From NCBI GenBank assembly GCA_943357895.1, contig CALRGO010000001.1, forward strand, positions 36,724 through 100,723: a DNA stretch of 64,000 nt, in the 5' to 3' direction. Source of the stretch: Parcubacteria group bacterium. Its GTDB lineage: Bacteria > Patescibacteriota > Minisyncoccia > UBA6257 > UBA11618. The notes below the pieces were generated by a model, which was given only the letters and a program-made list of their open reading frames with translations, was not told where the DNA came from and searched no databases. The stretch's first letter is position 1. Each line of letters opens with the position of its first letter. Below, one piece after another: positions 3,116 to 59,381 of this stretch. The position numbers and the translations under genes were made by a program.

Positions 3116-4378
3116 ATGTTCGACCTGAAAGTAATCGCGCGCGCCATCGAGCAGCTCGCGGAAGAAAAGCACATAGAAACCGGCAAAGTTGTCGAGGCTG
3201 TTGAAGCCGCGCTCGCCGCCGCATACAAAAAAGAATACGAAAAGAGGGGAGAAGTCGTGCGCGCAAAATTTGATTTGAAAACCGGCAACGTCACCTTCGC
3301 TCAAATTAAAACGGTAGCCGACGAAACGACGGTAGACATGACCCCGCCCTCGGCGGATGAAATTGCGGCCGCTGCTGCACCCGTGGAACAGGACTATCGC
3401 ACCTCGCGGTACGAAGCGCCGGAGCCCGTACTCGAAGAGGGTAAGCTGCCGCGCTACAACCCTGACCGCTACATCCTCATTAACGAAGCGCAGAAGATTA
3501 AAGCGGACGTACTACTCGGCGAAGAGTTAGAATTCCCCCTCGAAACTAAAATAGATTTCGGCCGTATTGCGTCGCAAACCGCCAAGCAAAATATCTTACA
3601 AAAACTCCGCGAAGCAGAGCGCGACTCGATCATGTCCGAGTTTAAAAATAAGGAAGGTGAAATAGTGAACGGCGTCATACAGCGCTTTGAGCGGGGGACG
3701 ACGTACGTCGACATCGGCCGCGCGACGGGCATTATGTTCTACAACGAATCTATCCCCGGCGAGCACTACCGCATCGGCGACCGCATGAAATTTTACGTGA
3801 CGGCGATCCAGAACGACACGAAGGGTCCCGGTATAATTCTTTCACGCGCGCACCCGCGCCTTGTCATAAAACTCTTCGCGCTTGAGTCGCCTGAAATCGC
3901 CGACGGCTCGGTAGAAATCCGAGCAATTGCTCGCGAAGCCGGCAACCGCACGAAGATCGCCGTAGTATCCCACATGAAGGGCGTTGACCCCGTGGGCTGC
4001 TGCGTTGGCCAGCGTGGCACACGCGTAATGGCAGTATCGGGCGAGCTCGGCCAAGAGAAAATAGACATCATAGAATTTTCGGAAGACCCCGCGGACTTCA
4101 TCGCGCACGCCTTGTCACCCGCGAAGGTTGCTCGCGTGGAAATCCTACCGCGTCGCGAAGCCCGCGCCTTTATCCCTGACGACCAGCTTTCGCTCGCTAT
4201 CGGTAAGGGCGGCCAGAACGTGCGCTTGGCGCACCGGCTGACCGGCTGGAAGATAGATATCCGCGCCGAGTCCTCACCCGAAACTGCGGTATTAAAAGAC
4301 GAAGAAGCACCGCAGGCGGAAGGCGCAGAACCAGCAATCGAAACGCCTACCGAAACGAAAACGGAGTCGGAGTCGTAA
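3116..4378 (+). CDS. nusA: transcription termination/antitermination factor NusA
   Basis: 420 aa. N-terminal NusA domain, S1 and tandem KH regions (GQRGTRV, IGKGGQNVRLA). Confidence 0.9.
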   Translation: MFDLKVIARAIEQLAEEKHIETGKVVEAVEAALAAAYKKEYEKRGEVVRAKFDLKTGNVTFAQIKTVADETTVDMTPPSADEIAAAAAPVEQDYRTSRYEAPEPVLEEGKLPRYNPDRYILINEAQKIKADVLLGEELEFPLETKIDFGRIASQTAKQNILQKLREAERDSIMSEFKNKEGEIVNGVIQRFERGTTYVDIGRATGIMFYNESIPGEHYRIGDRMKFYVTAIQNDTKGPGIILSRAHPRLVIKLFALESPEIADGSVEIRAIAREAGNRTKIAVVSHMKGVDPVGCCVGQRGTRVMAVSGELGQEKIDIIEFSEDPADFIAHALSPAKVARVEILPRREARAFIPDDQLSLAIGKGGQNVRLAHRLTGWKIDIRAESSPETAVLKDEEAPQAEGAEPAIETPTETKTESES

Positions 4379-4381
4379 TCT

Positions 4382-4412
4382 ATTCACTACCCACTAACCA
4401 CTTTTCACTAAT
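4382..4412. repeat. heptamer tandem array downstream of nusA
   Basis: attcactacccactaaccacttttcactaat. Confidence 0.55.
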
Positions 4413-4418
4413 AAAAAT

Positions 4419-4931
4419 ATGGACATGATGAAATTAACCGCAGGGGATAACGCGCCGGAAGAAATAAACGTCTTCGTGGAGATTCCGCAGGGGTCATCCA
4501 TCAAGTACGAAGTCGATAAAGACTCGGGATTTTTATTCGTCGACCGCTTCCTCCACACCGCGATGAGCTACCCCTTTAACTACGGCTTCGTGCCACAGAC
4601 GCACGCTGACGACGGCGACGCCGTCGACGTACTTTTAATATCGTCGTTACCCGTGACCCCCGGCTCGGTCGTGCGCGCACGGCCCATCGGCATGCTCGAG
4701 ATGGAAGACGAGGCCGGCATGGACAATAAAATCCTCGCTGTTCCGGTCATAAAAACGGATGCGCACTATGCGGATGTAAACGATATCGCGGATGTAAGCG
4801 AACATACGAAAAATAAAATCAAGCATTTCTTTGAAACCTACAAAAACTTGGAAAAAGGAAAATGGGTCAAAGTAAAAAACTTCTTAGGTAAGGATGCCGC
4901 CATCGAGGAAATCAGGAAGGGGATGAATTAA
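4419..4931 (+). CDS. ppa: inorganic pyrophosphatase
   Basis: Family I PPase motifs ([17 protein letters not shown]). Confidence 0.9.
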
Positions 4932-10587: not shown

Positions 10588-12240
10588 TCACATCCGCTCC
10601 GGCACCTCAATACCCAAAAGCCACAGGCCGTTCTTGATCACTTGGGCGGAGGCGACAACAAGCGCTAGGCGAAGGGCGCGAGCCTCGCCAACTTCCAGCA
10701 CCGGCACGGCGTCGTAAAACCGGCTGAACTCCTGCGCGAACTCGTTTAAGAATGTCGCTATGATATGCGGCGCATCGAGCGAATATGCCTGCCGTACCGC
10801 CTGCGGAAACTCCGCAATGCGCTTTAATAAACGCGCTTCGTGAGACGACGGAGTGATTAGTGGGTAGTGATTAGTGGGTAGTGACGCCGAAACGTCGCCC
10901 GCCTTTTCCAAAATAGCCTTGGCGCGCACGTATGCGTACTGGATGTAGGGCGCGCTATTACCTTGGATAGAGAGCGCCGCGTCCCACGAAAAGGCTATGT
11001 CGTGCTCACGGCCCATAGAAAGCATGTTGTATAAAATAGCGCCCACGCCCACTTCCTTAATACCCTTGGTTTTTACCACCGCCTCCTTTAGACCGTCTTC
11101 TAAAAAGACTATCCCGCCTTCACGCGTAGAAATTTTCTTGCCGTTAATCGTAACTACGCCGTAACTTACGTGCTTAAACTTTTCCTCCGGATAACCCATA
11201 AGCCCCAAGGTTTTAAAAATCTGCCGTAAATATAATTCCTGCTCGTGGCCAACCACATAAATTATTTTTTCCGCCTGCGGATATTCCTTAAGCCGCCAGC
11301 GGCCAACCGCGATGTCGCGCGCGCTGTAGAGCGACGCGCCATCTGACTTCACGAGCAAGAAAGAGGGGAGGCCAAACTTATCAAGATTGACTACTACCGG
11401 CCGGCCCTGCCCCGACGAAGCCATGGTTGTTAAGGGGCCCGCCCCGCGAAGCCCAGAGGGCGAAGTGGGGTCGCCGTATGCCGCCGCGCCCTTTACGAGC
11501 GCTTCGTCCACCGCTTCTTTTATAAAGGTCTCATAAAAACTCTCACCGTGCCATAAGTCAAAGTTAATGCCGAATAGGGCATAGACCCGCTCAAAATTCT
11601 TTACGCTTATATCGCGGAACTCCTGCCACAGGGCGCGTAGCTCCACATCACCCCCCTCGAGCTTGCGGAAAAGCTCCCGCGCCTCGTCTTCCAATTCTGG
11701 CGATGACTTTATCTCTTTCGTCATCCGCACGTATAAATCGAGCAAGGTGCGTATTGGGTCTTTTTTAAAGGCTTTCCTATCACCCCACTTTTGGAATGCA
11801 AGCATAATCTTCGCTAAAGACATGCCCCAGTCGCCAAAGTGGTTCGTAGTAATTACCGTATAGCCATTTGCCTTATAGATATTTGCGAGTGCGTGACCAA
11901 TAGCATTGTTGCGCGCATGGCCCATGTGCATAGGCTTCGCAATGTTGGGGGCGGAATATTCGAGCATGACGGTCTTACCCGCGCCCGATGCATTCCATCC
12001 GTACGACTCTTTCTTCGTCATGACCTCGTGGAGTACATGCTCCGTAAGCGCGTTTAAATTAAACGATATGTTTACGTACCGGCCGGTAACGACGACACTA
12101 CCGAATAACGGGTTATTCAACCCGCGAATTTTTTCCGCCACATCTTCCGGCTTTTCGCGGAAGCAGGGGATAGCCAAATCCGCCCCCACGCCCTCGGGTG
12201 GGATCTCTATCTTTGATGCGATCTTCTCTAAGCCGAACAT
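10588..12240 (-). CDS. argS: arginine--tRNA ligase
   Basis: 550 aa with class I HMGH motif (KPMHMGHARN), N-terminal Arg_tRNA_synt_N-like region and DALR-type C-terminus. Two in-frame repeat insertions: heptamer array at 10852-10884 and GC-rich element at 11434-11472. Confidence 0.9.
   Translation of the reverse strand: MFGLEKIASKIEIPPEGVGADLAIPCFREKPEDVAEKIRGLNNPLFGSVVVTGRYVNISFNLNALTEHVLHEVMTKKESYGWNASGAGKTVMLEYSAPNIAKPMHMGHARNNAIGHALANIYKANGYTVITTNHFGDWGMSLAKIMLAFQKWGDRKAFKKDPIRTLLDLYVRMTKEIKSSPELEDEARELFRKLEGGDVELRALWQEFRDISVKNFERVYALFGINFDLWHGESFYETFIKEAVDEALVKGAAAYGDPTSPSGLRGAGPLTTMASSGQGRPVVVNLDKFGLPSFLLVKSDGASLYSARDIAVGRWRLKEYPQAEKIIYVVGHEQELYLRQIFKTLGLMGYPEEKFKHVSYGVVTINGKKISTREGGIVFLEDGLKEAVVKTKGIKEVGVGAILYNMLSMGREHDIAFSWDAALSIQGNSAPYIQYAYVRAKAILEKAGDVSASLPTNHYPLITPSSHEARLLKRIAEFPQAVRQAYSLDAPHIIATFLNEFAQEFSRFYDAVPVLEVGEARALRLALVVASAQVIKNGLWLLGIEVPERM
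10852..10884. repeat. heptamer tandem array inside argS (encodes SLPTNHYPLITPS)
   Basis: agtgattagtgggtagtgattagtgggtagtgacg, which is in frame on the minus strand. Confidence 0.65.
11434..11472. repeat. GC-rich ~38-bp repeat element, copy 1, in-frame in argS (encodes DPTSPSGLRGAGP)
   Basis: ggggcccgccccgcgaagcccagagggcgaagtggggtc is the reverse complement of the element at 39597-39635. Confidence 0.7.
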
Positions 12241-12244
12241 GACG

Positions 12245-12276
12245 AAGTGGATAGTGAGTAGTGGTTAGTGGATAGA
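12245..12276. repeat. heptamer tandem array in the argS / trmL-like spacer
   Basis: agtggatagtgagtagtggttagtggatagat. Confidence 0.6.
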
Positions 12277-12286
12277 TACTACGATA

Positions 12287-12772
12287 CTAGCGTAGTTTAT
12301 TTTTAGCTATTTCGAAAGCGATTATACCAAAGGCGACGGCGACGTTAAGCGACTCCTTTGCGCCATGCATGGGAATACTAATAACGGCGTCGCACTTATT
12401 AATAATCACCCTCGGCAGGCCATCTACTTCATGCCCCACAATGAACGCGAGCTTGTGCATATTGTTTTTTAAGCAATCAGCCTCGTAATAGGGGGCGGCA
12501 TCCGGCGTAAGCTCAACGGCGCATATAAAATATCCCGCAGCTTTTAACTTGCGAATGCAATCAGCCGTGCGGGCGTACTTTTCCCACGGCACGGTTTTTT
12601 CCGCCCCCAGCGCCGTCTTTTCTAACATCTTCCGCGCACTGCCGAGCATGTCCGCCGGAGACGGCGTTATGCCGCACAAATACAGCCGCTCGATACCCGC
12701 GGCGTCCGCCGTACGAAACATAGACCCCACGTTATGCGCGCTTCGTATATTAGATAAAATACCTATTGCCAT
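12287..12772 (-). CDS. SpoU/TrmH-family RNA 2'-O-methyltransferase (TrmL-like)
   Basis: SpoU motif 1 NVGSMFRTADAAG; size ~160 aa. Start placed at MAIGILSN instead of the upstream Met in the ORF track. Confidence 0.7.
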   Translation of the reverse strand: MAIGILSNIRSAHNVGSMFRTADAAGIERLYLCGITPSPADMLGSARKMLEKTALGAEKTVPWEKYARTADCIRKLKAAGYFICAVELTPDAAPYYEADCLKNNMHKLAFIVGHEVDGLPRVIINKCDAVISIPMHGAKESLNVAVAFGIIAFEIAKNKLR

Positions 12773-16457: not shown

Positions 16458-18761
16458 ATGGAACAGAAAGCTGTATTCACCGTAAAAGGTATGCATTGCG
16501 CCTCGTGCTCGGCAATCATCGAAAAGACGCTCAAAAAAATCGATGGCGTAGCGTCAGCGGAAGTCAGCTATGCCACCGAAACGGCACGAGTATCTTTTGA
16601 TGGAATGAAGACGGATGGCGCCACACTCTCAAAGGCAATCGAACACCTTGGTTATTCGCTTACAAGTCAGCAGACCGAAACGGCAGAGTCTATGGGTATG
16701 TCCGTGGACGAACACGCATCACACACAGGGCTCGGCCAATCGAAACAAGAAAAGCTCGCGGAACTTACAGGCATGAGGCGCATGGTTATTGCGTCTATTC
16801 CACTCACCCTCTTTAGTATTTTCGTCATGGGGTGGGACGCACTCGCCGCATTCGGCCTTGTCGCCCCGCCCACGGAAATCACGAAAGAGCTTTTTCACCA
16901 CCTCTTACCCCTGATGGCGACCTACATGCTCTTCGTCGTCGGTACGCCCTACCTTTTAGGCGTGTGGCGCTTCATGCGCTACGGGGCGGCGAACATGGAT
17001 ACGCTTATCGGCATCGGCACGTCCGTCGCGTACTTCTACAGCTTTATTATCTCTGCATTCGAAGAGCCACTTAAAGGCCTTATCGATACGGACCATACCT
17101 ACTACGACGTCACCATCGTCGTCATCGCGTTCATAACTCTTGGCAAATATCTCGAAGCACGCGCGAAATTAAAAACCGGCGCAGCACTCGAAAAATTACT
17201 TAACCTCCAAGCAAAAACCGCGCTCGTAATCCGCAACGGCAAAGAAATGGAACTACCCGTAGGCGAAGTCGTCCATGGCGACATGATAATCGTAAAACCA
17301 GGAGCGCGTATTCCTGTAGACGGTACGGTTACGGAAGGGGCTTCATTCGTAGACGAATCCATGGTGACCGGCGAACCAATGCCCGTAAAAAAGAAAATGG
17401 GCAACGCGGTCGTTGCCGGCACTATTAACACCACCGGGTCATTTATATTCACAGCAACGAAAGTCGGCAAGGAAACCCTGCTCGCGCGTATCGTCCAAAT
17501 GGTACAAGAGGCGCAAGGGAGCCGCGCGCCCATTCAGGCACTTGCGGATAAAATCTCCAGCGTCTTTGTGCCGATAGTCCTCGGCATATCCTTCGTATCG
17601 CTCGCCGCATGGATAATTATCGGGACGCCCATACTCGGCGCAGCGCTCGCACTTTCGTACGGCCTCGCATCGTTTGTTGGTGTTCTCGTTATTGCCTGCC
17701 CCTGTGCCTTAGGGCTCGCAACGCCAACCGCGATAATCGTGGGTGTGGGTAAGGGCGCCGAAGAAGGCATCTTAATAAAAGACGCGGCGACGCTCGAGAT
17801 GCTCCACAAGGCAAACACCGTCGTCATGGATAAGACCGGCACCATCACGAAAGGCAAGCCAGAGCTCACGGATATCCGCACCTACGGGAACGTTGAAAAA
17901 AATGAATTAATCGCTATCCTCGCATCGCTCGAAGCGAAGTCCGAACACCCGATAGCCCACGCCATAACGGAATACGCGAAAACGAACGGTATCCAGCTAC
18001 GAGACGTTACGAATTTCGAAGCCTTAAAAGGCAAAGGACTTACGGGAAGTAGTAATGGCACGCGCTACTTTGCCGGCAATACCGCTCTCATGAACGAGCT
18101 GGCAATTTCTTTCGACGTGAGCCATATCGAAACGGAAACACAAAAAGGATCAACGCCACTACTACTCGCAAACGAAAAAGAGGTACTCGCAATTATAATG
18201 ATTGCGGATAGCGTAAAAGCAGAAGCAGTTGAGGCAGTGCAGAGCCTCCACGAGATGGGCATAAAAACCATCATGCTTACCGGCGATAACAAAAATACTG
18301 CCGCGGCGATCGCACGCGCGGTCGGCATAGACGAAGTAATTGCCGAAGTCCTTCCGGATGAAAAACTTAAAAAAATAAAAGAGTTGCAAAATGCAGGGCG
18401 CGTTGTCGCAATGGTAGGGGACGGCGTAAACGACGCACCAGCGCTCGCGCAGGCGAACGTCGGCATCGCCATGGGAACGGGCACGGACGTGGCAATCGAG
18501 ACGGCCGGCATCACCCTCCTGCATGGTGATATCAGCAAACTCGTAAAGGCAATTAGTCTTTCGCGGCTCACGATGCGCGGTATCCGCCAAAATCTTTTTT
18601 GGGCGTTCGCGTACAACGTAGTAGGTATTCCGCTTGCCGCGGGCGCCTTGTACCCCGCTTTCGGGTTAACGCTCTCACCGGTATTCGCTGGCGCGGCCAT
18701 GGCGCTTTCCTCCGTCTCTGTGGTCGCTAACTCACTTCGATTAAAAGCCAAAAAAATATAA
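16458..18761 (+). CDS. copA: copper-translocating P1B-type ATPase
   Basis: N-terminal HMA GMHCASC, CPC motif, DKTGT phosphorylation site and GDGVNDAP hinge. Confidence 0.9.
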   Translation: MEQKAVFTVKGMHCASCSAIIEKTLKKIDGVASAEVSYATETARVSFDGMKTDGATLSKAIEHLGYSLTSQQTETAESMGMSVDEHASHTGLGQSKQEKLAELTGMRRMVIASIPLTLFSIFVMGWDALAAFGLVAPPTEITKELFHHLLPLMATYMLFVVGTPYLLGVWRFMRYGAANMDTLIGIGTSVAYFYSFIISAFEEPLKGLIDTDHTYYDVTIVVIAFITLGKYLEARAKLKTGAALEKLLNLQAKTALVIRNGKEMELPVGEVVHGDMIIVKPGARIPVDGTVTEGASFVDESMVTGEPMPVKKKMGNAVVAGTINTTGSFIFTATKVGKETLLARIVQMVQEAQGSRAPIQALADKISSVFVPIVLGISFVSLAAWIIIGTPILGAALALSYGLASFVGVLVIACPCALGLATPTAIIVGVGKGAEEGILIKDAATLEMLHKANTVVMDKTGTITKGKPELTDIRTYGNVEKNELIAILASLEAKSEHPIAHAITEYAKTNGIQLRDVTNFEALKGKGLTGSSNGTRYFAGNTALMNELAISFDVSHIETETQKGSTPLLLANEKEVLAIIMIADSVKAEAVEAVQSLHEMGIKTIMLTGDNKNTAAAIARAVGIDEVIAEVLPDEKLKKIKELQNAGRVVAMVGDGVNDAPALAQANVGIAMGTGTDVAIETAGITLLHGDISKLVKAISLSRLTMRGIRQNLFWAFAYNVVGIPLAAGALYPAFGLTLSPVFAGAAMALSSVSVVANSLRLKAKKI

Positions 18762-20175: not shown

Positions 20176-21027
20176 GTGTCAATTTACTACACCGCCCGTC
20201 GCACGAAAAATCTATACGAACCGAATTCGCACGAAGCGTTTAAGTTATCGCGCTCAAAGATAGATTTATTCATGCAGTGCCCGCGGTGCTTCTACCTTGA
20301 TAGGCGTATCGGCATTGGCCGCCCCCCGGGATTTCCGTTCGCGCTCAACTCCGCCGTGGACCACCTACTCAAAAAAGAGTTCGATATTCATCGTGCAGCG
20401 GGTAATAAGCATCCACTTATGGAAAAGTACGGAATCGATGCTGTGCCAGCGAAGCACGATAAGCTCGACGAGTGGCGCCATAACTTCACGGGCGTCGGCA
20501 CGCTTCACGCACCGACGAATTTTTACGTCTTCGGCGCGATAGACGATTTATGGCTTAATGCCGCAGGGGAGTACATGGTCGTCGACTATAAGGCGACGGC
20601 GAAAGAAGAAGAAATCAACGCATTGGATAAAGATTGGCACGACGGCTACAAGCGCCAAATGGAAATATACCAATGGCTCCTGCGCCAGAACGGATTCACG
20701 GTATCAAGTACTGGCTACTTTGTGTACTGTAACGGGAAGACCGATAGAAAGGCCTTCGACGGCAAACTCGACTTCGACATAACGCTCATCACCTACACGG
20801 GAAATTCCGAATGGGTTGATAAGGCGCTCATAGACGCCAAAGCCTGCCTCGACCACAACGAAATCCCAAAACAAAATGCTGCGTGTGATTACTGCGATTA
20901 TGTCGCGGCAGTGCAATCAAGCACTAAGTCGCCCACAGACGCCGTCTCGCGCGTAACTGTAAACGAGTCACCATACTGGCCCACCCCCACCCCAAAAAAG
21001 AAAATCACCCCCCCGACCCTATTTTAA
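20176..21027 (+). CDS. PD-(D/E)XK nuclease, Cas4/RecB-like with four-Cys cluster
   Basis: GTG start. N-terminal CPRCF plus C-terminal C...CDYCDY cysteines, and a D...VDYK nuclease core. Last gene of the cop operon. Confidence 0.5.
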   Translation: MSIYYTARRTKNLYEPNSHEAFKLSRSKIDLFMQCPRCFYLDRRIGIGRPPGFPFALNSAVDHLLKKEFDIHRAAGNKHPLMEKYGIDAVPAKHDKLDEWRHNFTGVGTLHAPTNFYVFGAIDDLWLNAAGEYMVVDYKATAKEEEINALDKDWHDGYKRQMEIYQWLLRQNGFTVSSTGYFVYCNGKTDRKAFDGKLDFDITLITYTGNSEWVDKALIDAKACLDHNEIPKQNAACDYCDYVAAVQSSTKSPTDAVSRVTVNESPYWPTPTPKKKITPPTLF

Positions 21028-25305: not shown

Positions 25306-25325
25306 GTGTCATGATTTTTCTAAAA

Positions 25326-25357
25326 AAATATGGCCTTCCGCTGGGGGATGGCCATAT
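25326..25357 (-). terminator. intrinsic terminator for the minus-strand small gene (ATATGGCC...GGCCATAT with T-run on the minus strand)
   Basis: aaaaaaatatggccttccgctgggggatggccatat seen on the plus strand. Confidence 0.55.
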
Positions 25358-25410
25358 GTCAGCTCGCTCTTGTTGCACGGCGAGTTATTCGTGCGTTCTT
25401 TATTATCAGG

Positions 25411-25608
25411 TTAGGGCAATGGTCCGCGATCACCAAGATGATGAACGCGATCAGGTGCTTGCTCGAGAGGATCGAGATCATTCACATAAATCTCTCGAAG
25501 CGTCGGCGGTTTCTGCTCGTCTTTTTTCAATTGACGAAAGATATCGCCTTTCATTTCAAGTGGGGCTAAAATCAGCCCAAGAAGACTACCGCGTTGTTCC
25601 GGGGTCAT
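25411..25608 (-). CDS. small hypothetical protein (65 aa)
   Basis: Perfect SD AAGGAG 6 nt upstream of ATG on the minus strand, coding-like composition and its own terminator. Favoured over the overlapping plus-strand ORF 25269-25631. Confidence 0.5.
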   Translation of the reverse strand: MTPEQRGSLLGLILAPLEMKGDIFRQLKKDEQKPPTLREIYVNDLDPLEQAPDRVHHLGDRGPLP

Positions 25609-25737
25609 GCATCACTCCTTACCCTCATTAACCCGTGGGAGCGGGTCGGCAATTAAGCCGAAAGATATTGGAAGAACTATCTCTATTGCACGATATTATA
25701 ATACCACCTTAACTATATAAATGTCAAGTATAGCGCT

Positions 25738-25766
25738 AAAAAGCCTCGTAAATATAGGCTTTTTGC
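25738..25766. terminator. bidirectional terminator hairpin (AAAAAGCCT-cgtaaatat-AGGCTTTTT)
   Basis: Seen directly. Confidence 0.55.
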
Positions 25767-25785
25767 GTTTTCGTGGGCGAGCGGA

Positions 25786-25977
25786 CCCTTCGTGCCAAGG
25801 CAACCTGAGTGGAGGCGGATAGCAAATCCCCGAAGAAGGAGATAAAAGCCGAGGAAAAATTGCTGTCTGAGTTCCGCAGCGCTTGCGCGGAGGGCGAGTT
25901 CGATTTTTCCTGTCGGCTTTTACGACGAGAGAGGTTGGATTTGCATACGCCGTAACGGGTTGCCGCGGCACGAAGGG
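25786..25977. ncRNA. candidate structured RNA, paralog 1 (~190 nt)
   Basis: ~93% identical to the reverse complement of 58579-58769. The terminal 11-bp helix CCCTTCGTGCC/GGCACGAAGGG is replaced in the paralog by CCCGTAGCGCC/GGTGCTACGGG, which is compensatory. There are inner helices GGCAACC/GGTTGCC and TAAAAGCCGAGGAAAAA/TTTTTCCTGTCGGCTTTTA. No conserved ORF. Confidence 0.5.
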
Positions 25978-26032
25978 TTTGTGAGCAATTTAGTTATCCA
26001 CAGGAGGCTATAATGCTATACTTTTAAAAACT

Positions 26033-32558: not shown

Positions 32559-32610
32559 ATTAAGGATTTTAGACTAAGCGAGGCGAACTTACGACACTAA
32601 GGCATCCTAA

Positions 32611-33414
32611 GTGGAAGCGCATAGCAGTTATCCACTAACTTCTCCGTCATTTCTACGGTATCCTAAAGAGGTGTTAGGGCTCAAAGCAAAAGCAGGCCTG
32701 TTGTTTTTCGTATGCGCTGGCGTTTTCGTCGGCCTTGTCGTGTTCGGCAACACTGTTGCCCGTAATGAAATGAATACCGACTCTGAAAAAAAGGCTGACT
32801 CTACCGCCCCACAAGCAATCGACTCGCTCCAAAACGCCATCGGCGAATCGGTGCCGATTACAACCGAAGCGCAACCTGAAATTACGCCTATAGGCACGCT
32901 AACAGCGAATAGCGATACCAACCTCACGCGTAATCTCGCCGCACTTATTGGTAAAAACATCGTGGATAAAAATCCCGAAGGGCCAGCGGGGGATAACCTT
33001 ACCGTTATGGGTGCAGACGGCATGGCGGATATCGCGGTTACAGAATCACTTAAAAACTTTAACCCTGCATATTTCTCTCCCGAGATCCTCCAGAGCGAAC
33101 TTATAACCCTCAGCACGCAAACAGCCGCGGCATACCGCGCAGAAGCCGAAAGAATAATAGCCGAAACGGAAATGCAAACCCCGCCGCCGATAGGCGACCT
33201 CATCGCAAGCCAAATGGCGGAATTTGCACGGCGCTATAAGACGCAAGGCGCCGCCCTCCGCGCACTCCCCGTACCATCCGCACTTACAACAGAACACATG
33301 AAAGCCATCCGCATAGCGCTCGGTAAACAGCGCATATTCGAAGCTGTTGCGGATTACGAAAATGATCCGATATACGCCATGCTCGCGCTTAAGTTATTAG
33401 ACACTCTCAAATGA
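32611..33414 (+). CDS. hypothetical single-pass membrane protein, first gene of the T4SS-like operon
   Basis: TM near the N-terminus (LLFFVCAGVFVGLVVF), periplasmic remainder. True start uncertain (possibly GTG near 32670). Confidence 0.45.
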   Translation: MEAHSSYPLTSPSFLRYPKEVLGLKAKAGLLFFVCAGVFVGLVVFGNTVARNEMNTDSEKKADSTAPQAIDSLQNAIGESVPITTEAQPEITPIGTLTANSDTNLTRNLAALIGKNIVDKNPEGPAGDNLTVMGADGMADIAVTESLKNFNPAYFSPEILQSELITLSTQTAAAYRAEAERIIAETEMQTPPPIGDLIASQMAEFARRYKTQGAALRALPVPSALTTEHMKAIRIALGKQRIFEAVADYENDPIYAMLALKLLDTLK

Positions 33415-44928: not shown

Positions 44929-45571
44929 GGGAGAATTTACGCTCTACGTGCAACTGCTGGAGTATCGAAAAAAGCGTGGTAGTGACCCAGTACAAACCAA
45001 CTGCGGCAGGGAGCGACCACAAAACCGCAATAGTAATCACGGGGCCGATCATTACCATATTCCGTGCAGTTTGCGCCGCAGGACTCTTATCCGCGGCGTG
45101 CCCCGTCATACTCATTACACCTAAAAGGTACTGTAAGAGCGCTGCCACAAAAACCAAAAGAATACTCCGCTCGTTAAGCATTAAGAGCCCTAAAAAAGAC
45201 CGCCCAAGATCCGGCGGCGGCGTAATAAAAACTTGGTATAAGGCAATAAGTATGGGTAACTGTACGAAAATTAAACCCAAACTCATTAGAGGGTTTACGC
45301 CGTGCTCCTTATAGAGCGCCATCAAGGCCTTACCCTGCTCTGCGCGATCATCCTTATGCTTTGCCTGTATGGCGTGAATATGCGGTTGGATTTTTTTCAG
45401 TACGTGCTGTTGTTTAAGGCTCTTATAAAACAAAGGATAGAGCACTAAGCGCACAATAACAGTCAAAAGGATAATCGCGACCCCAAGGTCGTTAAACGTA
45501 ACATTCTCATATAAAAATATAAGAAGCTTAAGAAGCGGATCGAGTAATAGAAGATGGAATAAGTTCTTCAT
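44915..45571 (-). CDS. yidC: membrane protein insertase YidC (short Gram-positive-type)
   Basis: Five TM helices and conserved GVAIILLTVIVRLVLYPL. Confidence 0.85.
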   Translation of the reverse strand: MKNLFHLLLLDPLLKLLIFLYENVTFNDLGVAIILLTVIVRLVLYPLFYKSLKQQHVLKKIQPHIHAIQAKHKDDRAEQGKALMALYKEHGVNPLMSLGLIFVQLPILIALYQVFITPPPDLGRSFLGLLMLNERSILLVFVAALLQYLLGVMSMTGHAADKSPAAQTARNMVMIGPVITIAVLWSLPAAVGLYWVTTTLFSILQQLHVERKFSHGTH

Positions 45572-45854
45572 GCCATTGATGCGCTGTGTAAGCCGCAGCA
45601 GCCGGATGGGTTATTATGAGGTAATCGGCTACCGGCCACTCAGACTTTCTTGCCCGTATCGCGTTAAACGCCCTACGGCGTATTACGTTTCTTAGAACGG
45701 CGGTTTTACCAACCCGCCGACCCACCACCACCCCAAACCTACTATAGGTAAGAGGACTCATAAAAATTTTTACGGTAAACGCGGGTTTACGTACGGTACG
45801 TCCCGTGCGCGTAAGCGCCTCCTGCACTAGCAGGCGGTCTTTTTTAGCGAGCAT
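45528..45854 (-). CDS. rnpA: ribonuclease P protein component
   Basis: RNR-type motif (VGRRVGKTAVLRNVIRRR); rpmH-rnpA-yidC order. Confidence 0.85.
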   Translation of the reverse strand: MLAKKDRLLVQEALTRTGRTVRKPAFTVKIFMSPLTYSRFGVVVGRRVGKTAVLRNVIRRRAFNAIRARKSEWPVADYLIITHPAAAAYTAHQWHEELIPSSITRSAS

Positions 45855-45993
45855 GTACCGCGGTAACCGCGAGACTCTTCCTGCCCTTGCGGCGGCGCTT
45901 CGTTATGACGCGCGCACCCATAGAAGAGGACATTCTCTTCAAAAAACCGTGCGTCCTGCGGCGCTTTTTCTTGTGCGGATTATAGGTTTGACT
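45844..45993 (-). CDS. rpmH: 50S ribosomal protein L34
   Basis: MSQTYNPHKKKRRRTHGFLKRMSSSMGARVITKRRRKGRKSLAVTA. The internal Met of ORF 45844-46140 is the real start. Confidence 0.85.
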   Translation of the reverse strand, partial: SQTYNPHKKKRRRTHGFLKRMSSSMGARVITKRRRKGRKSLAVTAVHAR

Positions 45994-46080
45994 CATACCG
46001 CTATAATAACAGATTTTACGGCGCTTATCAACACGTTTTTTTATTCTGTCATTATTGACAGGTAACGGCCCAACCCTACA

Positions 46081-47466
46081 ATGAGTACCATGGATTGCAA
46101 CGAGCTTTGGCAGAAAGTACTCGGCGAAGTCGAGTTGCAAATATCACGTCCTAATTTCATCACGTGGTTTAAAAATAGTTCCATTTTAGAAAAGAAAGAT
46201 GGTACGGTCACCATCGGACTGCCTAATAATTTTGCCCGCGAGTGGGTTGAAAATAAATATCACAACACTATCTTCGGCACGCTCCGCACTATCGACAGCG
46301 GTATACGTAAAGTCGAATATATTTTAACGAAAGATTCCGCAAAGCTCTCGTCCAACACGAAAAAAACATCCAGCACTCAACCGTACGGCGACTCGTCGAG
46401 CCAGATGATGTTTAACGAGATCATCATCGACCCGAACACCAACCTTAATCCGCACCACACGATGAATTCGTTCATCGTAGGGTCTTCAAACGAGATGGCA
46501 TACGCCGCGGCGACGGGGATACTTAAAGAAATCGGTACAAAATATAACCCGCTCTTTATCTACGGTGGCGTCGGCGTAGGGAAAACACACTTAATGCAGG
46601 CCTTAGGTAACGAAATTGTGAAGCTGTACCACGGGAAGGTCCGCGCACGGTACATCACATCGGAAAAATTCATGAACGAAGTCATCTGGGGGATGAAAAA
46701 TAAGCGCATGGAATCCGTGAAAGAAAAATACCGTGCGATCGACGTTTTAATTATCGATGATATTCAATTTATCGCCGGTAAAGCGCGCACCGAAGAAGAA
46801 TTCTTCCACACGTTCAATGCCCTCTACGAGGAACGGAAACAAATTATTATATCCTCGGACCGTTCGCCAAAATTCATCCCCGTACTCGAAGAGCGCCTTC
46901 GATCGCGATTCGAAGGGGGGATGATCGTGGATATCGGCTACCCTGATTTTGAGCTTAAGGCAGCAGTGCTGCGCGCTAAACTTGCGGAGAAAAAAGCAGA
47001 TCTTTCGGATGAAGTGATAGCGGAAATTGTAAATAAAGTTAAAAAAGGATTCCGTGAACTCGAAGGCATATTAAACCGCATACTCTTTTATCAGCAGGTT
47101 AAAAACCTTATAATAACGCCCAAGCTCGCCGAACAAATAATCGCCGAAGTAATAAAGACGCCGCAAAAAAACATTCATCCGGATGTCATAATACAAACTG
47201 TTTCTGATTTTTTCGAAGTACCGACTGCAGACATTATGAGCCATTCACGCAAACAACAAGTTGTAGAGCCGCGGCAAATCGCCATTTATCTACTACGCGA
47301 CATTTTAGACTTATCCTATCCATTTATCGGCGAAAAATTAGGGAAACGCGACCACACAACAGTCCTTTATGCGTATGAAAAAATTTCGCAGGAAATGACG
47401 CGTAATCAGACACTCAACCAAAAAATACTTTCCATTAAAGAAATACTTAATAAGGCGTATGTATAA
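46081..47466 (+). CDS. dnaA: chromosomal replication initiator DnaA
   Basis: AAA+ Walker A GGVGVGKTHL and C-terminal DnaA-box-binding HTH. Confidence 0.95.
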   Translation: MSTMDCNELWQKVLGEVELQISRPNFITWFKNSSILEKKDGTVTIGLPNNFAREWVENKYHNTIFGTLRTIDSGIRKVEYILTKDSAKLSSNTKKTSSTQPYGDSSSQMMFNEIIIDPNTNLNPHHTMNSFIVGSSNEMAYAAATGILKEIGTKYNPLFIYGGVGVGKTHLMQALGNEIVKLYHGKVRARYITSEKFMNEVIWGMKNKRMESVKEKYRAIDVLIIDDIQFIAGKARTEEEFFHTFNALYEERKQIIISSDRSPKFIPVLEERLRSRFEGGMIVDIGYPDFELKAAVLRAKLAEKKADLSDEVIAEIVNKVKKGFRELEGILNRILFYQQVKNLIITPKLAEQIIAEVIKTPQKNIHPDVIIQTVSDFFEVPTADIMSHSRKQQVVEPRQIAIYLLRDILDLSYPFIGEKLGKRDHTTVLYAYEKISQEMTRNQTLNQKILSIKEILNKAYV

Positions 47467-47671
47467 CCAGTGGATAACATCCGTATAACATGTTGCCAAA
47501 GCGCCACACACCTTACATGATTACCAGAGCACCTGAAAGTTATCCCCTTAGAAACGCCGTAACTATCCACAGGAAGACGCTGTCAAAAAAGGGCTTTCTA
47601 AAGGGGAAAAGAGAGTTATCCACCTATCCGCTATACCTACTATTACTACTAACTATATATAGAAAGAATAT
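47467..47671. promoter_or_regulatory. oriC: at least four DnaA boxes plus AT-rich unwinding element between dnaA and dnaN
   Basis: TGGATAACA (47471), GTTATCCCC (~47539), CTATCCACA (~47564), GTTATCCACC (~47614); AT-rich ctactattactactaactatatatagaaagaatat. Confidence 0.7.
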
Positions 47672-48784
47672 ATGAAACTAATTGTATTCCGTGACAACCT
47701 AAAAAACGGACTATTAGCTGCCGAACGGGCGGTAGCCGATTCGTCTAACTTACCGATATTAAAGAACGTCTTATTGAAAACGGTAGGGAATAAAATTCAA
47801 CTTACGACAACAAACCTCGAGCTTGCTATCACAAAACTTATATCGGGAAAGATTGTAGAAGAAGGTGCGTTATCGGTTCCTTTCAGCACGTTTTACAGTA
47901 TTGTGAATAATACGACGCACGACCGTATTAATCTTGAGCGCAGCGAATCGAGCTTTATGGTGAAGACAGATAATTACGAAGCGAAGATGCAGGGGTCTTC
48001 CGCGGAGGATTTTCCTCTTGTTCCACGTATGGAGAGCATGGATCATTATATGGAAATAGATCCGGTTTTTTTCCAAGACGCATTACAGCAGGTGATAAGC
48101 GCGGCGCATATATCAGATATCCGTCCAGAAATCAGCGGCGTATTATTCGACTTTCAAATGACGTCGTTAAAGCTTGTCGCCACGGATAGTTTTCGTTTAG
48201 CAGAAAAGGTAATCGATGGAGGGAGATTTAAACACACGTTCGAGGCCGGGTTTAAGGCTATAGTGCCACTTCGCACGGCGCAGGAGCTCTTACGGGTTAT
48301 TTCGCGTACAACGCCCCTCCTCGTTCATTGTGACGGCAATCAGATGCTCTTTACGTCCGACGACGTGGAGTTAATGTCACGGCTTATTGATGGTACGTAC
48401 CCTGACTACGAGCAGATCATCCCGAAAGACGCGGAGACGGAGATTGCGCTCGATAAGGCGCATCTTATGAACGCTGTAAAACTTGTAAGTAATTTCAGCG
48501 GTAAGACGAACGACGTACGTCTTTCAACAGATATAGAAGGAAAGACGGTGACGGTTCATTCGGTTAATCAATTCCTCGGCGAAAATAAATATCTTATCCC
48601 TGCACGCGTAACGGGTGCGCAAATTACGGATATTCCATTTAATTGGCGGTATCTTTTAGACGGACTGAAATCTATACAAGGGGATTCAGTTGTGTTGCGG
48701 CTTAATGGTAATAACAGACCAGCCTTAATGCGTCCCGAGAGTGATATATCGTTCCTCTATGTCGTAATGCCTATTCGGGTCTAG
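47672..48784 (+). CDS. dnaN: DNA polymerase III beta sliding clamp
   Basis: 370 aa with three-domain beta-clamp architecture, immediately after dnaA and oriC. Confidence 0.9.
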   Translation: MKLIVFRDNLKNGLLAAERAVADSSNLPILKNVLLKTVGNKIQLTTTNLELAITKLISGKIVEEGALSVPFSTFYSIVNNTTHDRINLERSESSFMVKTDNYEAKMQGSSAEDFPLVPRMESMDHYMEIDPVFFQDALQQVISAAHISDIRPEISGVLFDFQMTSLKLVATDSFRLAEKVIDGGRFKHTFEAGFKAIVPLRTAQELLRVISRTTPLLVHCDGNQMLFTSDDVELMSRLIDGTYPDYEQIIPKDAETEIALDKAHLMNAVKLVSNFSGKTNDVRLSTDIEGKTVTVHSVNQFLGENKYLIPARVTGAQITDIPFNWRYLLDGLKSIQGDSVVLRLNGNNRPALMRPESDISFLYVVMPIRV

Positions 48785-57795: not shown

Positions 57796-58556
57796 TCGTC
57801 TTTTTATATGGGCCGGACGCGTATAGGCGCAGCCGTAAGGAAAAGCAGCTGGTTGCCGAATACCGTAAAAAACATTCGGCGCTTTCGGTGGATTTTTTCG
57901 ACGCAGCGGAGGGCGCTACGTGGGACGACGTGCGAGGCGCCGTGAAGAACCGCTCGCTTTTCGACGATAAAAAACTCGCCATAATGAACGTGCGCGACGG
58001 CGCGGTTTTTGTGAAAGAAGAAATCAAATGGCTTAAGGCGCTTGCGGCGAACCCAGATGAGACTATTTTTATAACCGCGGACGGAGCACCCCTGAAGCCG
58101 TTTGCATTCCTGCTCGCGGCCCCCGTGCATGCGCAGGAGTTCGCGGAGCTTTCTGGTAAAGCGCTCCAGATATTCGTGGAGGTGGAGGCGGGGCAGAGGG
58201 GATTAAAGATAAGTGGGCAGGGCTTAGCCCAGCTCGCCGCGGAATACCGCGGCGATATGTGGGGGTTAATGACGGAGATTGATCGGCTCGCGCTTTCGTC
58301 CGTAAAGGATTTCGTTTCGGAGAAATCTAGTCCGGAAGATTTTATAAGCGCGATAAAGAAGTTGGCGTACGGTGGTGGTGCGGGCTCGCTTGCCACGCTC
58401 GAACGGGCGCTCGCGCACGAAGACCCCGCAAAGATATTCAACGTACTTGCCGCCTTTACCTCGGGCGAAAAAAAGCGGCGCATGGCCGACTACGACGCCG
58501 CCATAAAATTCGGCACCCTCGACTACGAGTCCGCGCTTACGGATTTTGTTCTGTAG
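57792..58556 (+). CDS. holA: DNA polymerase III delta subunit-like (short HolA)
   Basis: IVFLYGPDAY N-terminus typical of HolA. 254 aa, so assignment is tentative. Confidence 0.5.
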   Translation: MIVFLYGPDAYRRSRKEKQLVAEYRKKHSALSVDFFDAAEGATWDDVRGAVKNRSLFDDKKLAIMNVRDGAVFVKEEIKWLKALAANPDETIFITADGAPLKPFAFLLAAPVHAQEFAELSGKALQIFVEVEAGQRGLKISGQGLAQLAAEYRGDMWGLMTEIDRLALSSVKDFVSEKSSPEDFISAIKKLAYGGGAGSLATLERALAHEDPAKIFNVLAAFTSGEKKRRMADYDAAIKFGTLDYESALTDFVL

Positions 58557-58578
58557 TTTTTAAAGAATACTCCCCGAG

Positions 58579-58769
58579 CCCGTAGCACCCGGCAACCCGT
58601 TGCGGCGTATGCAAATCCAACCTCTCTCGTCGTAAAAGCCGACAGTAAAAATCGAACTCGCCCTCCGCGCAAGCGCTGCGGAACTCACACAGCGATTTTT
58701 CCTCGGCTTTTATCTCCTCTTTCGGGGATTTGCTATCCACCTCCACTTAGGTTGCCTTGGCGCTACGGG
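58579..58769. ncRNA. candidate structured RNA, paralog 2 (inverted relative to paralog 1)
   Basis: Reverse complement is ~93% identical to 25786-25977, with compensatory terminal-helix changes. Lies directly after holA with no intervening terminator. Confidence 0.5.
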
Positions 58770-58950
58770 TTCGACTCACATCCGGCAGAAATCCATACTT
58801 TGCTAGTATTTTAAGCTATTTCTACGAAAGCGCTTGACGGATGTATAAATAACATGGTATTATATATCCGTAGTTACGACAGCAACTTTCCACATCTTTC
58901 GGCGTTTATCGTCGACCCGCATCTCTGGGTTAATGAGAAAGGAGGGAATT

Positions 58951-59316
58951 ATGAGTATTCCATGGTCACCCGGAGTTGAATACAAGATTTCTCCTGCTAC
59001 GGCTTACGATTCGGGCATCTTGATTGGTTTTGATCCTAGTAGCTACGATCGTCAGCGTTTTTTGGAAGAAAAGCCAGATATGGATCCGGATTCTCAGGGT
59101 GTGCGGTTGTTTTTTACGGCTATTTGTGTAGCTCAACTCTCTCATTGTAAGTGGTCGGAAGAGATAATTGAGGATGTCAACTCTGACTTTCCAAAAGATC
59201 AAATTGCGGTTTTCGTTGGGCAAGTAGCTGGGGGGATGAAGTCTAAAAATTGGCGTTTGTTTATAGTTACGCCTAATCAGCAAGAGGGAAGTACTTTAAC
59301 TCCAGTCAATCCTTAA
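58951..59316 (+). CDS. hypothetical protein (121 aa)
   Basis: SD AAGGAGGG 5 nt upstream of the second ATG; sigma70-like promoter TTGACG-18-TATTAT at ~58838-58868. Lower local GC. Confidence 0.5.
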   Translation: MSIPWSPGVEYKISPATAYDSGILIGFDPSSYDRQRFLEEKPDMDPDSQGVRLFFTAICVAQLSHCKWSEEIIEDVNSDFPKDQIAVFVGQVAGGMKSKNWRLFIVTPNQQEGSTLTPVNP

Positions 59317-59381
59317 AAGCACGTGTTTGATTTATGCGTGCGGTGAGCAGTGCCCCTTAGCTAATTTGGCGGGGGTATTTT

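Follow-up and report, generated by a model that had tools for sequence, protein, structure and literature searches.

A dispersed family of long, covarying hairpin repeats coupled to ORFan gene cassettes in Patescibacteria

Long imperfect palindromes lying between genes are known from several groups of bacteria. The ERIC (IRU), YPAL and Correia (NEMIS) elements of enterobacteria, yersiniae and Neisseria resemble miniature inverted-repeat transposable elements (MITEs); they measure 100-170 bp, are co-transcribed with their neighbours and form RNA hairpins that alter the fate of the mRNA according to their orientation, and some of them carry outward promoters. REP and BIME elements, which can stabilise the upstream mRNA and serve as insertion targets, are likewise intergenic palindromic repeats at the 3' ends of genes. 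Here we describe a family of irregular hairpins of about 205 nt, hereafter called rods, two inverted copies of which lie in a stretch of 64,000 nucleotides from a Parcubacteria group bacterium (contig CALRGO010000001.1; "the window" below is this whole stretch). The PNPase gene adjoining copy 1 has relatives in a graded series that places the window in the Patescibacteria, or Candidate Phyla Radiation (CPR), whose members have tiny genomes with very little non-coding DNA; we came across hardly any published work on non-coding elements in them. The hairpin family takes about 1 kb or more per genome. The original prediction had been a pair of paralogous non-coding RNAs (ncRNAs): a conserved structure outside Rfam has been upheld, and the pair has turned out to belong to a dispersed multi-copy repeat tied to cassettes of ORFan genes.

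Like ERIC, YPAL and Correia elements, the rods are long imperfect palindromes, dispersed between genes and present or absent between close relatives, and their MITE-like traits extend to dispersed copies (at least five in one genome), an insertion polymorphism between holA and rpsT, and a relic. They have, however, no sequence or model similarity to these elements, from which they also differ by a constrained GA-rich core, by the ORFan cassettes, by the consensus DnaA box in their 3' tail and by their low copy number, about 5 per genome, in a CPR lineage. In contrast to those of a MITE, the rod termini are hypervariable and compensatory instead of being sequence-conserved inverted repeats that serve as transposase sites, and no transposase was called in the gene tables of the loci fetched. 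The rods resemble REP elements in being intergenic palindromic repeats at gene 3' ends, but REP units measure 20-40 nt and the rod is a single hairpin of about 205 nt with conserved internal loops. We propose, with a probability of about 0.4 on the sequence comparisons given below, that the rods are structure-constrained RNA hairpin repeats located at transcription-unit boundaries, with a lifestyle like that of ERIC and Correia elements and coupled to ORFan cassettes.

Structure, covariation and constraint

The two copies in the window are:

25780-25984, plus strand: rod copy 1, an irregular hairpin of about 205 nt (covariance-model match, 235 bits)
58572-58775, minus strand (the functional strand as assigned below): rod copy 2 (covariance-model match, 226.6 bits)

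They had been predicted to be about 93% identical, and blastn confirms this with a 188-nt alignment (25779-25965 against 58590-58777 reverse-complemented, E = 5e-77) in which the identity is 93.1%. From the outside inwards, copy 1 consists of a terminal helix, the GGCAACC helix, the GA-rich core, an A-run/U-run helix and an apical hairpin. All of the helices quoted in the original prediction were located in both copies: the GGCAACC/GGTTGCC helix and the interrupted helix AAAAGCCGAGGAAAAA/TTTTTCC-TG-TCGGCTTTT are present as quoted, and the terminal helix, CCCTTCGTGCC/GGCACGAAGGG against CCCGTAGCGCC/GGTGCTACGGG, differs between the copies at three positions per arm, with compensatory changes. 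The terminal helix of copy 2 contains one extra G·U pair, which is standard solely when read on the minus strand of the window. The minimum free energy of copy 1 is -106 kcal/mol (z = -8.4), and that of copy 2 is -97.7 kcal/mol on the minus strand versus -84.5 on the opposite strand; both copies fold far better than their dinucleotide shuffles (z = -7 to -9), none of 200 shuffles being as good. The duplication reaches past the rod into a second block that adjoins both copies (25624-25666 and 58894-58937, 82% identical) and contains a promoter and 5' untranslated region (5'UTR) directed away from the rod.

A covariance model built from eight copies recovered divergent members of the family in L008 and L006 (labels of this kind denote the approximately 35 related loci and contigs that we fetched), and the further homologs found in related genomes share the covariation. 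Pairs were counted over 19 copies, the two of the window and 17 from related Patescibacteria genomes and metagenomes, in an alignment fitted to the covariance model; 95.6% of the cells hold standard pairs and double-sided changes occur in 50 of the 68 pairs. None of 500 shuffles matched the observed pairing values, and sliding the 3' partners by 1-3 columns lowered the pairing to 36-46%. An independent MAFFT/RNAalifold run on eight copies gave 22 compensatory pairs out of 68. Selection on structure, which had been suggested from the two window copies, is thus borne out by the wider family, where the slid-register controls reach only about 40% pairing.

The layers of the rod evolve differently. 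The terminal helix varies yet stays paired, with double-sided changes in all 15 of its pairs, and the same holds for the apical hairpin, whose length ranges from 22 to 49 nt. The central region and the adjoining A-run/U-run helix are nearly invariant. This region is a symmetric 6x6 purine loop, not an open bubble, in which three 5'-GA-3'/3'-AG-5' motifs alternate with two G-C pairs that covary (columns 68-201 and 71-198); the inner helix is lengthened by two more pairs, U-A in some copies and G-C in others, and a loop of 11 nt, CUGUNUGARUY, is held constant along with the core. A T-loop considered for GAGUUCGAU was rejected because the bases in question are paired and covary.

The pairs also distinguish the two strands. 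G·U and U·G cells outnumber A·C and C·A cells by 74 to 14 (49 to 14 when the columns with a G·U majority are removed), and the assigned strand folds at the lower energy in 18 of the 19 copies. This G·U excess and the lower folding energy make the plus strand the folding strand for copy 1 and the minus strand that for copy 2, which reverses the earlier proposal (copy 1 minus, copy 2 plus).

Constraint on the sequence is seen at orthologous loci. The rods downstream of pnp in the window and in L001, L004 and L005 are 90, 82 and 86% identical, and their cores 94, 87 and 92% identical, whereas identity at four-fold degenerate sites in the neighbouring pnp gene is only 69, 57 and 53% in the same comparisons. 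The rod sequence is therefore constrained, the orthologous copies evolving much more slowly than the neighbouring four-fold sites, and on these alignments there is evidence that the rod is not merely a drifting selfish repeat. Identity to copy 1 is 34-88% in the terminal and apical parts and 52-94% in the core. Fifty covarying pairs, together with a core that changes far more slowly than neutral sites, indicate that the rod family does something.

That something is not the encoding of a protein. A GTG-initiated open reading frame (ORF) does exist in both window copies (25809-25955, plus strand; 58537-58746, minus strand), contrary to the letter of the original prediction, in which no ORF was shared. 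The protein-coding reading was nevertheless rejected, as the frame is not kept: many copies contain in-frame stops or frameshifts or have lost the GTG start, and the length of the apical hairpin (22-49 nt) varies by steps other than multiples of 3. Since the GTG ORF is not kept across the family, the conclusion that no ORF is conserved stands family-wide.

At the gathering score of Rfam 15, only tRNAs pass, both in the window (six tRNAs) and in 9 related loci holding 12 rods, and at E <= 10 only chance-level matches overlap the rods; an Rfam scan, the first check suggested for the two copies, thus assigns them to no family. Searches of phage and plasmid records (blastn) and of viral contigs (pattern scans) gave no match, and we found nothing corresponding in the literature on structured or noncoding RNA of CPR/Patescibacteria, on 6S RNA or on MITEs. 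A retron msr-msd was set aside, as no reverse transcriptase is annotated beside the rods in the loci with gene tables, the other rod loci having been covered by raw ORF scans. The template/variable repeat pair of a diversity-generating retroelement was rejected by eye because the differences between the copies are not adenine-specific. Type I/III toxin-antitoxin systems, IS110 bridge RNA and TnpB/IscB omega RNA were also set aside by eye, with no partner gene nearby; in bridge and omega RNAs the loops or ends are expected to vary, whereas in the rods the stems vary and the loops are fixed. The rods belong to no named family, each family considered failing at least one testable defining feature, and they are set apart by the depth of their covariation, by their constrained core and, above all, by the promoter-bearing ORFan cassettes to which they are coupled in a CPR genome.

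Gene cassettes on the 5' side of the rods

The cassette beside copy 1 is made up of the following parts:

25738-25764, no strand assigned: weak A/T-rich hairpin AAAAAGCC-N11-GGCTTTTT separating the rod from the outward promoter (seen directly in the sequence)
25698-25727, minus strand: strong outward sigma-70-type promoter TTGACA-18-TGgTATTAT (11/12 consensus matches and a TG motif)
25609-25697, minus strand: cassette 5'UTR, two small hairpins followed by a Shine-Dalgarno sequence (82% identical to 58894-58937)
25411-25608, minus strand: cassette ORFan 1, 65 amino acids (ORF listing)
25320-25400, no strand assigned: cassette 3' block, terminator hairpin ATATGGCC..GGCCATAT and hairpin GCACG..CGTGC

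The A/T-rich hairpin occupies the place where a bidirectional terminator had been predicted beside copy 1, but it is a weak one. Equivalent hairpins precede the rods at L001, L005, L010, L020 and L006, and in several copies their loop contains a TAAAAT with no accompanying -35 element. The same promoter block is found beside rods at other loci. In the 5'UTR, a first hairpin (UCGGC-loop-GCCGA) and a second (CCCG-CUCCCA-CGGG) come before the Shine-Dalgarno sequence; the loop of the second resembles an anti-Shine-Dalgarno sequence, and the 5'UTR could, judging from these features, be a translational control element. Copies of it occur in the window at 25609-25697 (minus) and 58864-58950 (plus), where the motif is found only beside the two rods, and in L001 at 12618-12700 and 20282-20372 (both minus); an alignment of these 4 copies shows no covariation. 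The 3' block is arranged back-to-back: the ATATGGCC..GGCCATAT hairpin with its T-run on the minus strand serves the cassette gene, and the GCACG..CGTGC hairpin with its T-rich tail faces the other direction. It is about 85-91% identical to blocks at different loci in relatives (L005 18904-18977, L010 ~1755-1840, L001 ~12264-12345).

Copy 2 forms part of an insert with the same organisation:

58577-59369, no strand assigned: whole insert of about 795 bp (rod, A/T region, promoter, UTR, ORFan and a 3' hairpin at 59319-59341)
58834-58863, plus strand: outward promoter of cassette 2, TTGACG-18-TGgTATTAT (10/12 consensus matches and a TG motif)
58864-58950, plus strand: 5'UTR of cassette 2, the same two-hairpin motif
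58951-59316, plus strand: cassette ORFan 2, 121 amino acids from the ATG after the Shine-Dalgarno sequence (127 from an upstream ATG)

The insert lies in the loop of an ancestral bidirectional terminator between holA and rpsT, the arms of which are kept at 58567-58576 and 59370-59378. Relatives whose HolA proteins are 94, 91 and 84% identical have a 31-nt bidirectional terminator between the two genes and no rod. Copy 2, which is without the usual tail, forms one extreme end of the insert. The end of a mobile element had been named as a finding that would speak against a novel ncRNA family, and a purely housekeeping-ncRNA reading is weakened by the fact that copy 2 ends an insert of about 795 bp that is missing from relatives. 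No direct repeat that might be a target-site duplication accompanies the holA-rpsT insert, and its junction lies inside a microhomology of 7 nt (CGGGGAG); only in L015 is the rod flanked by a possible repeat pair, TTATTCCACA/TTATTCACA.

The cassette architecture of copies 1 and 2 is also present beside rods in L001, L005, L010, L020 and the distant L006. In each case the cassette lies on the 5' side of the rod, and the 5' block and the 3' block of about 80 nt are conserved while the ORFs that they enclose are unrelated. ORFs differ even at the same locus: the slot of ORFan 1 holds a different ORF in the close relative L001, though the PNPases of L001 and the window are 96% identical. Ten rod-adjacent ORFans, ORFan 1 and ORFan 2 included, have no match in Pfam, PHROG or PADLOC, the exception among rod-adjacent genes being a NUDIX gene in L013. 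Among 5.8 billion proteins, ORFan 2 matched only itself; its AlphaFold model (predicted local distance difference test score, pLDDT, of 42) was unusable and was not used.

Distribution, exchange and decay of the copies

A rod lies directly downstream of pnp in four genomes (on contigs of relatives), and more copies occur at other loci. Pattern scans, which covered species-representative genomes and a metagenome collection, added at least five copies in GCA_964436175.1, one in a 'Candidatus Harrisonbacteria' metagenome-assembled genome and several in groundwater metagenomes. Among the matches listed, the family is confined to a narrow clade of Patescibacteria (Parcubacteria/'Harrisonbacteria'-like groundwater bacteria), a range that is a lower bound because the scans were pattern-based.

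Copies at different loci are sometimes closer to each other than orthologous copies: copy 1 is 94.8% identical to the copy at the ksgA locus of L005 and 82% identical to the copy at the pnp locus of L004. The terminal helix CCCGTAGCGCC recurs at four unrelated loci, and the locus downstream of ksgA holds three different rod subtypes among the genomes. Full rods stand there in L001, L004, L005 and L010. The window has a remnant at this locus:

32582-32636, plus strand: relic rod at the ksgA-downstream locus (seen directly in the sequence)

In this relic, preceded by an AAGCGA flank (window 32576-32636), an internal deletion of roughly 160 nt or more has joined the GTTATCCACT tail directly to the opening ~45 nt of a rod, and the covariance model cannot score the relic. 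A second relic might, speculatively, be present where the copy 2 insert ends on the right (59335-59369). L008, a more distant relative, has at its pnp locus (12068-12224) a rod fragment, CGCUGUGUGAGUUCCGUAG plus the apical hairpin; a perfect 24-bp inverted repeat encloses it, and the fold is multi-branched, with z about -7.3 to -7.6 whichever strand is taken.

Rods are also found in company with other repeats and with each other. In L019, a rod is nested in another palindrome, with two inverted copies of CGCGAAGTGCGGACCGTGGAGTACG around it. CGCGAAGTGCGGACCGTGGAGTACG is a longer version of a short REP-like motif, GGCGAAGTGGGA (reverse complement TCCCACTTCGCC), that recurs in these related genomes, and the arrangement looks as if the rod had been inserted into the palindrome. 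The sites of the motif are:

L015, ~1400-1500: REP-like motif GGCGAAGTGGGA
L008, ~17930-18010 and ~18270-18300: REP-like motif GGCGAAGTGGGA
L019, ~2170-2207 and ~2419-2470: REP-like motif GGCGAAGTGGGA

In L013 (4031-4912), a NUDIX hydrolase gene (4270-4686) stands between two inverted rods, with dnaJ on one side of the group and a lexA-like gene on the other; in the related L017, its place is taken by two small membrane-protein ORFs, and only the right-hand rod is present. Independent public assemblies of the window's own strain (L031, L032 and L034) end at or just beside copy 2, the rod being a repeat that fragments metagenome assemblies.

Most rods have a short 5' flank, (A)AGCGA, and 13 of the 19, at six or more different loci, are followed by a 3' tail of about 25 nt, G(A/C)GAGC(A/G)-N5-8-TTATCCAC(A/T), that ends in TTATCCACA, the consensus DnaA box. 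Like copy 2, the divergent subfamily is without this tail. That of copy 1 is:

25985-26002, plus strand: 3' tail of copy 1, GAGCAATTTAG and TTATCCACA (tail recurrence and 9-mer census)

According to the census, the perfect DnaA-box 9-mer at 25994-26002 is the sole one in the 64-kb window. The replication origin region of the genome lies at 45528-48784, with rnpA, rpmH (minus strand), dnaA (46081-47466) and dnaN (47672-48784); DnaA boxes with one mismatch lie in and after the dnaA-dnaN spacer (47469-47477, 47563-47571, 47616-47624 and 47902-47910), and the GC skew changes sign with a cumulative minimum at about 46-48 kb. Copy 1 and the relic (left replichore, plus strand) and copy 2 (right replichore, minus strand) all point toward oriC, an orientation to which we give no weight, as there are only three cases. 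In all three, the G·T-rich strand is on the leading-strand template.

Possible roles of the rods

We favour a role for the rod as RNA, most likely read from the plus strand for copy 1 and from the minus strand for copy 2. It would be transcribed at the end of a transcription unit or between units and fold as a long irregular helix, in which the outer and apical stems would be free to change while pairing persists, and the invariant GA-rich core, the A-run/U-run helix and the 11-nt loop would probably form a protein-docking surface. In cis, it could then serve as a boundary or 3'-end element that stops, processes or protects transcripts and insulates neighbouring units. The copies, as those of ERIC, YPAL and Correia elements, spread to new intergenic hairpins, swap between loci and decay, and the rod is the fixed partner of small expression cassettes on its 5' side, each with a strong outward promoter, a conserved 5'UTR, an unrelated ORFan and conserved 3' terminators. 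The placement of the rods that have no cassette is consistent with such a role: 8 out of 8 are sense-oriented just downstream of a co-directional ORF (by gene calls for six and by ORF scan only for L016 and L019), the upstream genes being pnp (L004, L005), ksgA (L004), NUDIX (L013) and small genes (L015, L016, L017, L019). These solo rods start 7-46 nt past the stop codon, the shortest distance being the 7 nt after the pnp stop in L005, and in the three solo intervals that were scanned (L005, L004 and L013) no other canonical terminator lies between the upstream gene and the next. Should the rod prove to act as RNA, whether as a boundary element or as the partner of a protein, it would represent a new class of structured RNA with better comparative support than many accepted motifs.

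Several observations weigh against this role. The closing helix is followed by UUUGUGAG, CUCGGGG or UCCGACG and not by the U-tract of an intrinsic terminator, and terminator scans flag only sites internal to the rod. Promoter scans revealed no convincing rod promoter where the upstream gene is divergent, and in L015 and L008 a canonical terminator stands upstream of the rod. In view of these three points, transcription of the rod, its action in cis and the binding of a protein to its core are steps that we infer from sequence. The A/T-rich hairpin by copy 1 would better suit the terminator of an opposite-strand transcript. Single-stranded DNA, when folded, also accommodates tandem G·A pairs and G·T wobbles, so that the strand asymmetry is no proof of RNA. 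Finally, the pair counts come from an alignment already fitted to the covariance model, and conservation of the core across species could stem partly from recent exchange between related genomes.

Two other explanations each seem about half as likely to us as a boundary role in cis. According to the first, the rods would be genes for a family of trans-acting structured ncRNAs, which would serve a lineage-specific RNA-binding protein that reads the GA-rich core, either as its RNA subunit or as its sponge; the rods might be processed from 3'UTRs or expressed from a divergent promoter, their variable stems would be scaffolding, and variable genes would gather beside them as they do beside tRNA and small RNA genes. 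RNAs that bind proteins classically combine invariant internal loops with stems that are hypervariable but paired, as seen here, the G·U asymmetry suits RNA, purifying selection is strong at orthologous loci, and such an RNA, lying outside Rfam, would be new. The spacing of 7-46 nt between the stop codon and the solo copies, however, leaves no room for a promoter, and the unit is not bounded by any conserved promoter or terminator. Decay of a copy to a relic occurs, and copy number and location vary among close relatives, which is unusual for a needed component of a ribonucleoprotein.

The second, equally likely explanation is that the rod is a site of recombination or transposition in single-stranded DNA, like attC or the targets of IS200 or IS110 elements, at which a recombinase acting in trans captures or moves promoter-bearing ORFan cassettes; the covariation would then reflect selection on a folded DNA substrate. 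The rods share with the attC sites of integrons a structure that is kept while the sequence varies, one favoured strand, and solo and inverted copies, and their cassettes share with integron cassettes small ORFan genes that differ between strains. Movement of this kind would account for the terminal position of the rod in the copy 2 insert, for the arrival of this insert in a hairpin loop with no obvious duplication of the target, for the NUDIX gene between inverted rods in L013, for cassettes that are always 5' of the rod and have their ORFs swapped between conserved flanks, and for a cassette 5'UTR motif that the window has only next to rods. At its base, the stem is often GAAC...GTTC, loosely like the R''/R' cores of attC. 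By eye, though, the attC core RYYYAAC...GTTRRRY is matched only in part, AGCGAAC...GTTCGGC fitting at 5/7 and 6/7 positions in about half the copies, and other copies having CGGACC...GGTCCG there. The rods, at about 205 nt, exceed the known sizes of attC (57-141 nt), they are single and dispersed instead of arrayed, and no integrase, transposase or relaxase appears in the gene tables of the approximately 35 loci. Unlike the genes of integron cassettes, those beside the rods have a promoter of their own and are directed outwards instead of ending at the rod. The leading-strand template, which holds the G·T-rich strand of all three window copies, is the less exposed one, and the orthologous copies are stable and constrained.

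A broader version, which we consider rather doubtful, makes the rod the anchor or recombination module of a dispersed CPR gene-cassette system, in which self-contained ORFan cassettes are captured, swapped and brought next to this folded single-stranded element by a putative recombinase; such a system would be functionally integron-like, without arrays or a known integrase. If the cassettes of such a system did dock at the rod, this would help to explain how reduced genomes acquire and exchange strain-specific ORFan genes, and the covariance model can be used to find hot spots of this type.

It is improbable that the rod acts as a double-stranded DNA element that, with its tail, binds DnaA or another regulator in titration or promoter control, the palindrome being an operator or cruciform. 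A perfect TTATCCACA does follow most rods in a fixed orientation, that of copy 1 being the only perfect 9-mer in 64 kb and matching the near-consensus boxes of the window's oriC, and promoters lie on both sides of rods. But one box per copy is little for titration, the distance that separates the tail from the next -10 element downstream varies, neither copy 2 nor the divergent subfamily has the tail, and the G·U/A·C asymmetry and 50 compensatory pairs spread over 200 bp would be left unexplained. Least probable of all is a divergent 6S RNA (RF00013) that would mimic an open promoter and sequester RNA polymerase: the rods share with it a size of about 200 nt, the overall rod shape, and a closing stem and a terminal hairpin with a non-Watson-Crick region between them, but the 6S covariance model gives no match at E <= 10 for copies 1 and 2 and two divergent L013 rods, the "bubble" is the structured 6x6 purine loop with its tandem G·A motifs and covarying G-C pairs, and the element is multi-copy (at least five copies in one genome), insertion-polymorphic and decaying to a relic.

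One further feature of the window is unrelated to the rods. ARAGORN calls a tRNA-Ile with the anticodon TAT (UAU) at 59-133. Such a tRNA is an uncommon way for bacteria to read AUA, a codon that is usually read by a lysidine-modified CAU tRNA.

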